64,000 nucleotides of DNA from Escherichia coli (lineage in GTDB: Bacteria > Pseudomonadota > Gammaproteobacteria > Enterobacterales > Enterobacteriaceae). Under the pieces are notes generated by a model. It worked only from the letters and a program-made list of their open reading frames with translations. It was not told the DNA's origin and did not search any database. The stretch lies in the NCBI GenBank assembly GCA_005400705.1, contig GCA_005400705.1_4079.1. One strand, written 5' to 3'. The position numbers were made by a program, and so were the translations under genes. Below, piece after piece: positions 5,294 through 37,412 of the stretch (position 1 is the first letter of the stretch; each line of letters starts with the position of its first letter).

Positions 5294-5593
5294 ATGAAAA
5301 TTAAAATGATTAATGATTACGTTCTTGTTCGACAAATTGAAGCACAGAATAAAAGTACTGGTGGTATTATTCTAGGTAATGTTGAACCACCATGTATTGG
5401 GATGGTAATTTCCGTTGGTCCAGGTAAAATTCTTCCGAACGGACAACTTGCAGAACATAATATTAAAGAAGGTGATATGGTTGTGTTTGGTCGTTCATCT
5501 TTGAACACACCACTGACTGAAGATCTTGGTGGCGGTGAAGATACATATTATGTAATGAAAATCGAAGAGATTTTTGGTAAGAAAAATGGCTAA
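5294..5593 (+). CDS. GroES/Cpn10-like co-chaperonin
   Basis: KSTGGIILG mobile-loop-like motif, VISVGPGKILPNG, GDMVVF; GGAGG RBS 8 nt upstream. Confidence 0.75.
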   Translation: MKIKMINDYVLVRQIEAQNKSTGGIILGNVEPPCIGMVISVGPGKILPNGQLAEHNIKEGDMVVFGRSSLNTPLTEDLGGGEDTYYVMKIEEIFGKKNG

Positions 5594-6311
5594 AAAGAAA
5601 TTTATTCCATTTTGGATGGTCCCTGCTCACTGGGGACTTTCTGGAAAGGCAAAAGAGATAGCTAAAGCATACTACTACAATGATGATTATGAAGCTGATA
5701 TGAAAGTTGCTGAATTGACATATCTAACTCCATATGAAGTTGAAGTGGCCCAATTGGATATTAAAAAGAAATATAGCGTAATTGGAGATTTGGAATATCT
5801 AATTGCTGCACTTGATGTTGAACTAAAATATTCTAAAATTACTCGTGAACAGTATGATGTTAAAGTTCTTGATGCAAAACTAAGTATTGGAGTTATTACA
5901 GAAAAAGAATATGATATGGAAATCATTGAGTTAATGCCAGAAGGTGATGAAAAAAGGCTTAAGGCTATTGAATTTGCATATCGTTACGATGAAATCACAC
6001 AAAGTGAATATTCTAAGGAAATATACACACTTCGTAAAGAACCTTGGATTGATTTGGATGTTGTTCTTGATCCTGAAACTAATGAAGTTGAGTTTGTATT
6101 TGACTATAATGAATATTTCTGGAAAAAGTTGAAAGCTGAAGGTCATCCAGGAAATGATGAAGAAGAAATTATCGATAACTTTGTGAGAGACTTGGGGCGT
6201 AAACTTGCTACGGATGATTTCAGTGATGATTACGACACAAAGCTGGTGAGTGCGAACGAAGGATTAGACAAGCTACCTGGTTTGCCTGAAGGATTTCGTT
6301 CATATAGATAA
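5586..6311 (+). CDS. hypothetical protein with repeated ITxxEY (SHOCT-like) motifs
   Basis: KITREQYDVK / VITEKEYDME / EITQSEYSKE repeats; start overlaps GroES stop. Confidence 0.5.
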   Translation: MAKKKFIPFWMVPAHWGLSGKAKEIAKAYYYNDDYEADMKVAELTYLTPYEVEVAQLDIKKKYSVIGDLEYLIAALDVELKYSKITREQYDVKVLDAKLSIGVITEKEYDMEIIELMPEGDEKRLKAIEFAYRYDEITQSEYSKEIYTLRKEPWIDLDVVLDPETNEVEFVFDYNEYFWKKLKAEGHPGNDEEEIIDNFVRDLGRKLATDDFSDDYDTKLVSANEGLDKLPGLPEGFRSYR

Positions 6312-6323
6312 CATATAAAAAAA

Positions 6324-6350
6324 GGAGAGCAAATGCTCTCCTTTTCTTTT
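6324..6350. terminator. bidirectional rho-independent terminator between convergent genes
   Basis: ggagagc-aaat-gctctcc hairpin flanked by A-tract and T-tract. Confidence 0.6.
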
Positions 6351-6358
6351 GAAAAATA

Positions 6359-7048
6359 TTAAACCAATGCTGGGATGTATTGGAAAAGTTTAACACCGAA
6401 ATCACCTGCTGCATCAGCAGATTGGGAACGTAGGTAAACTTCGGTAACACCATCTTTAGCAAGTAGTGGAACACCAGTTAGATCATCAATTAGTAGACGG
6501 CCTTCTTCGGATTCAGTACTTGGTACACCTTGTGGTGATTTAAGATCTTTGTTAAAGACACCCGCACGTTCAACTAGGAAGGTAACAACAGAAGCATCAG
6601 CAATACTAACTGAACCTGCACTCAATACACCATCAGGTGCGTTGGTGAAACCAGTAACTGGAAATACTTCAAGACCATTACCTGCGATGTTAGAGGTAGC
6701 GATGATAACCGCACGTTGTTGAACAACATCGACAATACGTTTAACGTTAGTTTGTGCTGCATAAGATGCATTGTAATCAGCTTCTAGTGTGCCAAGAACA
6801 AATGCAGTTCCATCAATACGTTTGATACCTTTATCATTTAGATATGCTAGAATTTCTTCTGGAATATCAGTGTTTAGAAAACGTTGTAGACCAGCATAAG
6901 AAGAAACTGCACCAGTAACTAGAACGTTTACGTCTCCTAGCTTACTGATAGCAATGGATGCTAGGGCGTTAGTGCCACAAAAGTAACCTAGAATACGTTC
7001 AAAGGAATAACCATTGATACGTTCAAAAGAAGTATTAGTATATGACAT
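6359..7048 (-). CDS. hypothetical protein, paralog of 7063..7662 (possible late/structural)
   Basis: 229 aa, A/G/V/T-rich; AGGAGG RBS; shares QQRAV...VTFLVERAGVFNK block with neighbour. Confidence 0.6.
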   Translation of the reverse strand: MSYTNTSFERINGYSFERILGYFCGTNALASIAISKLGDVNVLVTGAVSSYAGLQRFLNTDIPEEILAYLNDKGIKRIDGTAFVLGTLEADYNASYAAQTNVKRIVDVVQQRAVIIATSNIAGNGLEVFPVTGFTNAPDGVLSAGSVSIADASVVTFLVERAGVFNKDLKSPQGVPSTESEEGRLLIDDLTGVPLLAKDGVTEVYLRSQSADAAGDFGVKLFQYIPALV

Positions 7049-7062
7049 AATCTATCCTCCTA

Positions 7063-7662
7063 TTATAGTTGAACAGGAAGAGCAGCACGTACTTTAATTG
7101 CTACAGCAGTAGATGCACCTGCATCACCAACACCATCAGTACCTTGACTTACGAAAGTTTTGGTACGGAAAACTTTAGCTTGAGCGATAGACTTAGCTAG
7201 GTCAACAGTTGGATCAACTGGAGCAGGACATGCTGAACCAGGACGAACTTCTTGCTTGTTAAATACGTCTTGACGTTCACAGATGAAAGTCAATGCAACA
7301 GAATTAGCACCACCTGCTACATCAGCACCACTAGTGCCGAACGCAACTACGTTTGGATTAGCATTTTTGAAATCAGCAGGAATAACAACTTCTGAATCAA
7401 GAGCTAGTAGAGAGGTAGTAACTAGAACTGCACGTTGTTGTAGTAGTTGGGTAACCATGAATAGGTTATATTGAGCATTACTTAGAGCAGTTTGATACGC
7501 TTCAGCTTGAACATCAGAACCGTCAGAAGTAACTTTGGTAGTACCTAGTTCAACATCAGTTGGTAGATCGATTACGATGGTAACGAAACCGTTATTACCA
7601 CCCCACCATTCGCGAGCAACGCTAGACATACCATAGTTACGGTTAAAAGAATTAAGACTCAT
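7063..7662 (-). CDS. hypothetical protein, paralog of 6359..7048 (possible late/structural)
   Basis: 199 aa; AAGGAG RBS; QQRAVLVTTS...LTFICERQDVFNK aligned with neighbour. Confidence 0.6.
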   Translation of the reverse strand: MSLNSFNRNYGMSSVAREWWGGNNGFVTIVIDLPTDVELGTTKVTSDGSDVQAEAYQTALSNAQYNLFMVTQLLQQRAVLVTTSLLALDSEVVIPADFKNANPNVVAFGTSGADVAGGANSVALTFICERQDVFNKQEVRPGSACPAPVDPTVDLAKSIAQAKVFRTKTFVSQGTDGVGDAGASTAVAIKVRAALPVQL

Positions 7663-7803
7663 GAAAATCTCCTTGTCAAATTTTGTGCAGGTATATCCTG
7701 CTTAAAGTTATTTATCAAAAAATATCACTAGCATTTAAATTTACTGAGATATTTAATGAATTTCTATGATATTATTTATCAAATCTGGGAAAGTGATTCA
7801 AGA

Positions 7804-7814
7804 TGTGCTATAAT
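7804..7814 (+). promoter_or_regulatory. extended -10 promoter (TGcTATAAT)
   Basis: gtgctataat; followed by caatga-aaa-tcattg palindrome at 7819-7833. Confidence 0.45.
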
Positions 7815-7823
7815 TATCAATGA

Positions 7824-13081
<5,258 letters not shown>

Positions 13082-13109: not shown

Positions 13110-13120
13110 TGTGCTATAAT
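13110..13120 (+). promoter_or_regulatory. extended -10 promoter (TGcTATAAT) for SSB gene
   Basis: gtgctataat about 88 nt upstream of ATG 13208. Confidence 0.45.
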
Positions 13121-13207: not shown

Positions 13208-14260
13208 ATGAAATCTCTAGCTGAAATTCGTGCACACCTAAAAGCAGAACAAGAAAAAGCAGAAGCTCAAAAGAATGGTACATTTACTGGCGAGCGTAAA
13301 GCTGATTCGTTCTTAGCTTTCTGGAACGTACCTTATAACGAACCACTAAACCTACGTTTTCTACCAGATGCAGATGAGTCTAACCCATTCTTCTGGCGTG
13401 AACGTGACATGATTAACCTAACTTTCAATGGTGTAGTCGGTATGCACACTGATAAAGTTACCGTTCAAGTACCTTGTAACGAAATGTGGGTTCCTAAATC
13501 CTGTCCGGTTCTGAAAGAAGTACGTCAATGGTTCCAAAGTGCGAATGAAACAGGGAACGAAGAACTAAAAGCAATGGCTGGTCGTTACTGGAAGAAGAAA
13601 ACCTATCTAATGCAATGTTTTATTGCTCCTGATAGCGTTGCAGTAAAAGACGACATTGCACCAGAAAATCCAATTCGTCGTATTCTGGCTAACAAAGATA
13701 TCTTTGATAAAGTTAAATCCATCCTGCTAAACCCAGGCATCAAAGAGTCTCCAACTCACTACGTTCAAGGTCGTGATTTTGGTATTGTTAAAACTAAGAA
13801 TGGTGGTGGTTATAATAGCTACGACATGTCTCAATTCTCCATGTCTGAGCGTCCACTAAACGAAGAAGAACTAGCAGCAATTGAAAAATATGGCCTATAC
13901 AATCTAAATGATTTTATGCCAAAACAACCAACTCCAGAAGAGTTGAAAGCAATTGAAGAAATGTTCGAAGCATCAGTAAATGGTGAAGCATATGATCCAG
14001 CACGTTGGGCATTTGCATATCGTCCAGCAGGTGTACCAAAACCTAACTCTGGAACTGTTACTGAATCAAAACCAACTCCTGCTCCAGTACAACAAGAGTC
14101 AGCACCTGCACCAGTAGCACCTACTGCTCCAGTTACACCAGCCCAACAAGCTGCTCCAGTAACTCCAGTCGCTACCCCAGCAGCAACCACTCCTGAAGCA
14201 CCAAAAGAACAACTATCTGCATCTGCACTAGTTGCTCGTTTGAAACAACAAGGTAAGTAA
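13208..14260 (+). CDS. single-stranded DNA-binding protein (T4 gp32-like)
   Basis: His/Cys cluster (MHTDKV...VPCNEMWVPKSCP) consistent with gp32 Zn site; Pro/Ala-rich C-terminal tail. Confidence 0.75.
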   Translation: MKSLAEIRAHLKAEQEKAEAQKNGTFTGERKADSFLAFWNVPYNEPLNLRFLPDADESNPFFWRERDMINLTFNGVVGMHTDKVTVQVPCNEMWVPKSCPVLKEVRQWFQSANETGNEELKAMAGRYWKKKTYLMQCFIAPDSVAVKDDIAPENPIRRILANKDIFDKVKSILLNPGIKESPTHYVQGRDFGIVKTKNGGGYNSYDMSQFSMSERPLNEEELAAIEKYGLYNLNDFMPKQPTPEELKAIEEMFEASVNGEAYDPARWAFAYRPAGVPKPNSGTVTESKPTPAPVQQESAPAPVAPTAPVTPAQQAAPVTPVATPAATTPEAPKEQLSASALVARLKQQGK

Positions 14261-23140: not shown

Positions 23141-23150
23141 GTGCTATAAT
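23141..23150 (+). promoter_or_regulatory. extended -10 promoter (TGcTATAAT)
   Basis: gtgctataat 30 nt upstream of primase ATG. Confidence 0.45.
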
Positions 23151-29530: not shown

Positions 29531-29539
29531 TGCTATAAT
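29531..29539 (+). promoter_or_regulatory. extended -10 promoter (TGcTATAAT)
   Basis: tgctataat followed by AGGAG RBS of nuclease gene. Confidence 0.4.

Positions 29540-35811: not shown

Positions 35812-37412
<1,601 letters not shown>

Follow-up and report, generated by a model that had tools for sequence, protein, structure and literature searches.

Gene pair and source of the sequence

A stretch of 64,000 nucleotides (nt) from an Escherichia coli assembly (GCA_005400705.1, contig GCA_005400705.1_4079.1; the whole stretch is called the window below) carries two adjacent minus-strand genes of a jumbo phage, named here gp210 and gp211 after their counterparts in Escherichia phage vB_EcoM_phAPEC6 (genus Asteriusvirus). 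The two genes were analysed with respect to their relationship, their expression signals and their probable role in the virion. The pair as such is already known, in the literature since 2013 and in PHROGs. Added here are a conserved leader with a covarying 5' hairpin, a codon ranking like that of the capsid gene and a bidirectional terminator downstream, together with a full-length test of the paralogy, the absence of a solved relative of the fold and the rejection of a tail-tube hypothesis.

Both open reading frames (ORFs), of 199 and 229 amino acids (aa), are present where a first-pass annotation made from the sequence alone had placed them (Table 1), and nearly all remaining long ORFs of the window lie on the plus strand, as that annotation had also described. 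Its term 'early cluster' for the surroundings was loose, the flanks being replication, recombination and packaging genes, some of whose products are also detected in virions. The proteins of the window are 100% identical to those of phAPEC6 and 121Q, and the 1.7-kb stretch holding the pair is 100% identical to phAPEC6 and at least 98.9% identical to about 20 more records, including 121Q, PBECO4 and SP27. Further names in the RaK2 gp106/gp107 family, to which the pair belongs, are GAP32 264/265.

Insertions and deletions break the collinearity with phAPEC6 when all 64 kb of the window are compared, and the source phage is therefore regarded as a close relative or variant of the deposited phAPEC6 (MK817115). 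Motif statistics were for the same reason computed on the phAPEC6 record itself. Collinearity anchors against MK817115 (window ~16000-40000) showed a shift of +1 from ~16 kb and of -775 to -779 from ~40 kb; for several 40-mers taken from 24-36 kb of the window that record contains no exact match.

Table 1. Features of the gp210/gp211 region, with positions as counted in the window.
Feature	Position	Strand	Details
Upstream paralogue, coding sequence (gp210)	7063..7662	minus	ORF, 199 aa; = phAPEC6 gp210, RaK2 gp107, CBB_271, 121Q 618
Downstream paralogue, coding sequence (gp211)	6359..7048	minus	ORF, 229 aa; = phAPEC6 gp211, RaK2 gp106, CBB_270, 121Q 617
Proximal late-promoter-like box GATAAATA	7709..7716	minus	46 nt upstream of the gp210 ATG; T4 consensus TATAAATA
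Distal GATAAATA box, possible second late start	7773..7780	minus	(G/A/C)ATAAATA in enterobacterial relatives, absent from the Vibrio phage
5' leader stem-loop GCAGG-AUAUA-CCUGC	7687..7701	minus	starts ~7 nt after the proximal box
gp210 Shine-Dalgarno site AAGGAG	7669..7674	minus	6-nt spacer; AGGAGA invariant in relatives
gp211 Shine-Dalgarno site AGGAGG	7056..7061	minus	7-nt spacer; overlaps the second stop of gp210
Bidirectional intrinsic terminator	6317..6348	both	between the convergent genes gp211 and gp212c; 14-bp stem and T run on the minus strand

Paralogy, family and composition

The first-pass annotation had recognised the two proteins as paralogues from a few shared blocks, and formal alignment found significant similarity along their full length. 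BLASTP of gp210 against gp211 gave 35% identity across 89 aa (E 8e-9), the QQRAV and TF..ER..VFNK blocks included, and hhalign of the two subfamily profiles aligned 176 columns from the N- to the C-terminus (probability 98.4%, E 4.7e-15). The main difference between the two is a helical insertion of ~30 aa in the 229-aa form, visible in alignment A1 and in the AF2 model. In the joint alignment of both subfamilies (63 family members) 12 columns are invariant. The A/G/V/T-rich composition noted earlier was found again, at 41% and 37% of residues in the two proteins; both are net acidic and contain no histidine.

Each protein matched phrog_9326 ('virion structural protein') over profile positions 1-195 of 195, gp210 with E 1.3e-86 and gp211 with E 3.4e-86. 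The earlier description as an unknown family was thus mistaken, the family being recorded already as PHROG 9326 and the pair described in the 2013 RaK2 paper. The family is narrow: when 1.84 billion representative proteins were searched exhaustively with profiles, only 42 clusters were returned, all of them family members or fragments except for one 1054-aa repeat protein, which was regarded as spurious. Searches of Pfam with gp210 and gp211, and of PDB sequences with both proteins, gave no match. The 'hemagglutinin repeat' label that gp211 carries in MK817115 was rejected, as Pfam gives it no support.

Distribution and gene order

In tblastn searches either protein found the same 74 phage records, and in all 74 both copies stand side by side, which upholds the duplication proposed in the first-pass annotation. 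These records are RaK2-like jumbo phages of enterobacteria and Xanthomonas and one Vibrio phage. A search with a distant member of the family returned the same 74 records and gave no link to PA5oct or other jumbo clades for which transcriptomes exist. The duplication is real and ancient, and predates the clade. That both copies were retained everywhere suggests distinct or joint roles for them, and gp210 and gp211 may possibly form a hetero-oligomer.

The arrangement around the pair is equally stable. In CBB, RaK2, Munch, XbC2, EJP2 and the Vibrio phage the tandem pair is flanked by the RNaseH gene on one side and by a gp212-like gene and GroES on the other, always on the strand opposite to these neighbours, so that RNaseH and the pair diverge and the pair and the gp212-like gene converge. 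The divergent RNaseH/pair arrangement is present even in a distant metagenomic relative.

Two variations on the family were seen in passing. In Vibrio phage 2.275.O the gene NVP2275O_488 (L004:1135-1818) is a third tandem paralogue (hhalign 98.1%, E 1.1e-13) with an ATAAATA box, a hairpin and a ribosome-binding site of its own; expansion of the family to three copies is therefore possible. In the distant environmental members P0130, P0131 and P0133 (290-300 aa; L029:10001-10903) ~70 aa are added ahead of the last strand. This segment contains two GG(S/T)G(Y/F) motifs and could be an extra surface module; Pfam gave no match on these 290-300 aa relatives.

Presence in virions

The structural role proposed in the first-pass annotation is borne out by published mass spectrometry, in which identical or homologous proteins were found in virions of phAPEC6, CBB and RaK2, with sequence coverage of 56-91%. 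In purified phAPEC6 virions gp210 was covered to 69.8% and gp211 to 69.9%, as compared to 74.9% for the major capsid protein and 68.0% for the sheath (PMC7247149). In CBB virions the figures were 56.4% for CBB_271 and 91.3% for CBB_270, which marks the upper end of the range tabulated there (PMC5259590). RaK2 virions contain gp106 and gp107, described as 'two distantly related proteins' and abundant among the virion proteins separated by sodium dodecyl sulphate-polyacrylamide gel electrophoresis (SDS-PAGE), where both migrate at their predicted mass (PMC3622015). Migration at the predicted size indicates that the RaK2 proteins are not cleaved.

Probable late promoter, leader and terminator

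The region upstream of gp210 was aligned with that of six divergent relatives (RaK2, Munch, XbC2, EJP2, CBB and Vibrio phage 2.275.O). The ATAAATA of the proximal box is invariant in sequence and position in all of them, and is followed in constant order by a stem-loop, an A-rich spacer and an invariant AGGAGA ribosome-binding site. GATAAATA agrees with the T4 late consensus TATAAATA at 7 of 8 bases, only the first base being different. The late-promoter-like motifs pointed out in the first-pass annotation therefore stand as far as the proximal box is concerned, which is conserved across the clade; the 8-mer as such is not over-represented, with 5 copies found and ~7 expected in the whole window.

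Boxes of the same kind precede other structural genes. In phAPEC6 the capsid, scaffold, gp228c, sheath, tube, neck and gp205c genes each have a box of the TAAATA type 35-56 nt upstream, and in the phAPEC6 stretch equivalent to the window ATAAATA was found upstream of 5 of 16 virion-detected genes as against 4 of 64 others (Fisher p 0.0135). The authors of the CBB and GAP32 studies had predicted ATAAATA as a late motif, and a gp55-like sigma factor is known by annotation only, as gp237c in phAPEC6 and CBB_244 in CBB (PMC5259590). The likeness to the gp55-dependent late units of T4 thus consists of the box at the expected distance, the same box before other structural genes and the annotated gp55-like sigma factor. 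The pair differs from them in the first base of its box, in the CTAAATA form of distant relatives and in the conserved 5' hairpin after the box; the CBB paper reports no homologues of gp33 or gp45 from this clade (PMC5259590).

The leader hairpin is supported by covariation. In a 16-sequence alignment (A4), 86% of cells are paired as compared to 26-39% when the partners are slid, changes on both sides occur in 3 of the 5 pairs, and the covariation score was reached by none of 500 shuffles. Pairing is kept in stems that differ from one clade to the next (GCAGG/CCUGC, GUAAG/CUUAC, GCCAG/CUGGC and GCAGC/GCUGC). T4 late promoters have their start site ~6 nt after the box, and with a start of this type the hairpin would stand at the very 5' end of the predicted late messenger RNA. 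Hairpins of the ompA type are the classic case of protection from 5'-end-dependent decay, and by analogy with these the leader hairpin may protect the transcript from such decay.

The strong Shine-Dalgarno sites described earlier were found at both genes, and a perfect ribosome-binding hexamer (6/6) occurs in only 8 of 80 genes of the equivalent phAPEC6 stretch, gp210 and gp211 included. gp210 ends in tandem in-frame stops, TAA then TAG (7060-7065, minus strand), and is separated from gp211 by an intergenic gap of 14 nt. The short gap, together with an AGGAGG that overlaps the second gp210 stop, is consistent with a bicistronic transcript.

Downstream of gp211 the bidirectional terminator was likewise recovered. 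The sequence can fold into a hairpin on either strand (-16.6 and -19.7 kcal/mol, z -5.4 and -6.4), in each case with a U tract behind it, and the Munch, G17 and UE-S1 records carry terminator annotations at this position. A search of Rfam across 5500-8500 gave only sub-threshold matches, which lie on this terminator hairpin.

Codon usage

Codon usage was ranked for 141 ORFs in 134 kb of phAPEC6, with the codon usage of the major capsid gene as the reference. gp210 was placed second and gp211 fourth, with gp228c between them at rank 3, the sheath gene at 10, the tube gene gp275c at 19 and the portal at 82. CTA makes up 70% of the leucine codons of the pair (background 22%), CGT 94% of the arginine codons and GGT 83% of the glycine codons, and ATA, AGA, GAG and CAG are not used at all. 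As a fraction of leucine codons, CTA amounts to 0.73 in gp210, 0.68 in gp211, 0.83 in the capsid gene and 0.55 in the sheath gene; values near the background were found for the tube genes (0.19-0.33) and the portal (0.17). The sheath is present in ~150 copies. Codon ranking and mass-spectrometry coverage taken together would place the pair in the expression class of the capsid protein, above the sheath.

The claim of the first-pass annotation that these are late and highly expressed genes is hence supported by the box, its enrichment before virion genes, the annotated sigma factor and the codon usage, all of which are read from sequence; we infer late timing on this basis.

The most biased genes overall are the capsid gene (L034:3877-5052), the gp210/gp211 pair and the SSB gene (window 13208-14260), with CTA at 0.68-0.83 of leucine. 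CTA is a rare codon in E. coli, and the window contains no tRNA genes that could explain the preference for it. The gp228c gene of phAPEC6 (L034:6970-7818) encodes a 31-kDa virion protein, adjoins the prohead protease gene and has its own CTAAATA box; its product may likewise be an abundant component of the head.

Structure models

AF2 models were obtained for gp210 (pLDDT 85.2, pTM 0.80) and gp211 (pLDDT 79.0, pTM 0.75). In both, the predicted alpha/beta domain is compact and combines a ferredoxin-like core with a single long helix of 26 residues. In front of the domain lies a conserved N-terminal arm with invariant R and G residues, which is disordered in the models. Foldseek found no match in the PDB at E <= 0.001, and in BFVD only family members and uncharacterised proteins.

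Placement in the particle

Capsids of the RaK2/121Q type are T=28 shells of ~135 nm, among the largest HK97-fold capsids known. Cryo-electron microscopy of phAPEC6 and 121Q at ~10 A has shown an elongated decoration protein in a hexagonal lattice, present in as many copies as there are capsid subunits (1620), another protein in the centre of every hexamer and a large inner body, and to none of these has a gene been assigned (PMC7247149, PMC5646251). A component at the level of the capsid fits the gene pair because its products are small, abundant, unprocessed and found throughout the clade, with expression signals like those of the capsid gene. Capsid-matching codon usage, coverage among the best in three proteomes and clade-wide conservation make the pair the best-supported candidate for a capsid-level accessory component. 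A position on the outside, as decoration or cement, is favoured by the lack of processing, the acidic character and the conserved disordered N-terminal arm; decoration proteins use arms of this kind to latch onto shells. We therefore read the locus as a bicistronic late operon for two paralogous, very abundant and unprocessed core virion proteins, most likely capsid-level accessory components and probably of the decoration or cement type, an overall reading to which we give about an even chance.

On this reading, transcription would start a few bases after the T4-type late box GATAAATA, which would be read by the host RNA polymerase carrying the gp55-like sigma factor of the phage. The transcript would open with the conserved stem-loop, presumably protecting its 5' end, and both cistrons would be translated from near-perfect ribosome-binding sites with codon usage like that of the capsid gene. 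The operon would close at the bidirectional terminator, which would also shield it from the plus-strand genes converging on it. gp210 and gp211 would then form a hetero-oligomeric decoration or cement layer on the T=28 shell. A more specific form of this proposal, which we put forward tentatively and would sooner expect to see revised than upheld, is that a heterodimeric cement makes up the outer lattice of the T=28 capsid, bridging capsomers at the local two-fold axes with the N-terminal arms clamping the gp23-type shell. The two would then be decoration proteins of a structurally new class, confined to RaK2-like jumbo phages.

Several points weigh against an external capsid layer. The placement in the particle is itself only something we infer, and sequence coverage and codon bias are no more than proxies for copy number. 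Structure-based comparison found no resemblance to any known decoration protein. Other small and well-covered virion proteins of phAPEC6, for example gp347 (14 kDa, 75%) and gp253, compete for the lattice, and the inner body of 121Q and phAPEC6 would also need small proteins in hundreds of copies. Our literature searches found no transcriptome of a RaK2-like phage, which bears on the late timing, and no high-resolution capsid structure for this clade; the published phiKp24 capsid is that of a T=27 phage with no relation to it.

A place in the inner body is a rival to be taken seriously, which we consider unlikely and yet well within consideration. gp210 and gp211 would here be internal head proteins, packed with the DNA as major components of the phiKZ-like body of ~91 x 18 nm that bubblegram imaging has revealed in 121Q and phAPEC6; they might also be ejected into the host. 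The body exists in both phages and its proteins are without gene assignment; the hundreds of small-protein copies it needs agree with the high coverage and the capsid-like codon bias, and the disordered N-terminal arm could be a targeting signal. The inner-body proteins of phiKZ also form paralogous families, so that the likeness extends to small, paralogous, many-copy proteins in the head of a jumbo phage. Those proteins, like the internal proteins of T4, are processed, whereas RaK2 gp106 and gp107 have their full predicted size and are not cut by the prohead protease. Both members of the pair are moreover net acidic and free of histidine, unlike the basic internal proteins of T4, PHROG and structure searches connected the pair with no known internal protein in either sequence or fold, and evidence of an inner body comes from 121Q and phAPEC6 only, while the pair spans the whole clade. 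The same breadth argues against a still less probable place in the tail, neck or fibre apparatus, for example as rings decorating the sheath or as anchors of the 'hairy' fibres on phAPEC6, 121Q and CBB: the pair occurs in every member of the clade and in the distant Vibrio phage, and whiskers are reported for some members only. The proteins are present in virions, and there is room for such components, since decoration density without a gene is seen at two levels of the tail and fibre bases sit on both sheath and capsid (PMC7247149). Tens of copies would be needed there and not hundreds, a poor fit to the coverage and codon bias of the pair, and the modelled fold is globular and not fibrous.

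The oldest proposal, made tentatively by the RaK2 authors in 2013, was that the pair is the source of the tail tube (PMC3622015). One of the two would be the tube protein in view of its size (21-24 kDa), its abundance in virions and its predicted beta content, RaK2 having at that time no recognised tube gene. In phAPEC6 the sheath gene is followed directly by gp275c, gp274c and gp273c, all three of which match the tail-tube PHROGs 4542 and 13438 (and more weakly 45) with E 5e-86 to 8.5e-227, whereas gp210 and gp211 match phrog_9326 alone and do not have the beta-sandwich fold of tube proteins. The pair (129.6-130.9 kb) also lies ~80 kb from the sheath gene (211.7-214.4 kb), and its codon bias exceeds that of the sheath. 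Tail-tube identity was accordingly rejected, and we regard it as extremely improbable. Only slightly better placed, and also dropped, is the view that the two are very abundant late non-structural proteins, such as assembly factors, which co-purify with virions. SSB, a RecA-like protein and a topoisomerase do appear in these virion proteomes, at 7-17% coverage as against ~70% for the pair; the pair was moreover recovered in three independent proteomes from different purifications, and its abundance among SDS-PAGE-separated virion proteins was remarked on by the RaK2 authors. We therefore hold this explanation to be very unlikely. The tube-like genes gp273c-gp275c (L009:23644-26307), which are triplicated, are labelled 'hypothetical' in the phAPEC6 record.

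Among known systems, the family of the pair itself (RaK2 gp106/gp107, PHROG 9326) shares the tandem order, the placement on the opposite strand and the detection in virions throughout. For the favoured decoration or cement layer the nearest comparison is with T4 Soc and Hoc, lambda gpD and Dec of phage L. These are likewise small late proteins, abundant and unprocessed, whose genes stand apart from the main head block. The pair is proposed to act as Soc/Hoc-type proteins would, in high copy on the outside of a gp23-type HK97-fold shell. It has no sequence or fold similarity to these proteins, and it keeps two paralogues together, suggesting a hetero-oligomer and not one species acting by itself.

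A gene assignment would help to explain how very large shells are stabilised. If the proteins are external, they would provide a high-copy display site on a chassis for therapeutic phages. The conserved leader, with late box, 5' hairpin and ribosome-binding site, is a compact example of how the strongest late genes may be driven.

Neighbouring genes and probable plus-strand promoters

The convergent neighbour gp212c (window 5586-6311, plus strand) does not appear in the virion proteome table of phAPEC6; it is annotated as a 'virion structural protein' (phrog_13349) in several relatives and as a 'structural protein' in CBB.

An extended -10 motif, TGCTATAAT, occurs five times in the window, at 7806-7814, 13112-13120, 23142-23150, 29531-29539 and 36005-36013. 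All copies are on the plus strand, against ~1 expected, and five were reached by 1 of 100 shuffles. The copies at 7806, 13112, 23142 and 29531, at least, are found a short way before the starts of ORFs on that strand, RNaseH and SSB among them, and the motif is probably a promoter class of replication genes. The first copy (7803-7814) stands back to back with the late boxes of the pair, and its complement ATTATAGCACAT is conserved in relatives. A similar divergent RpoD-like promoter was described in the CBB paper (PMC5259590).

The start of the RNaseH/5'-3' exonuclease gene downstream of this motif (7830/7881/8022-8867, plus strand) is annotated inconsistently. The mechanical ORF begins at TTG 7830, the gene has 987 nt in SHEFM2K, RaK2 and CBB, corresponding to ATG 7881, and the phAPEC6 record gives an 846-nt coding sequence labelled 'DNA polymerase'.

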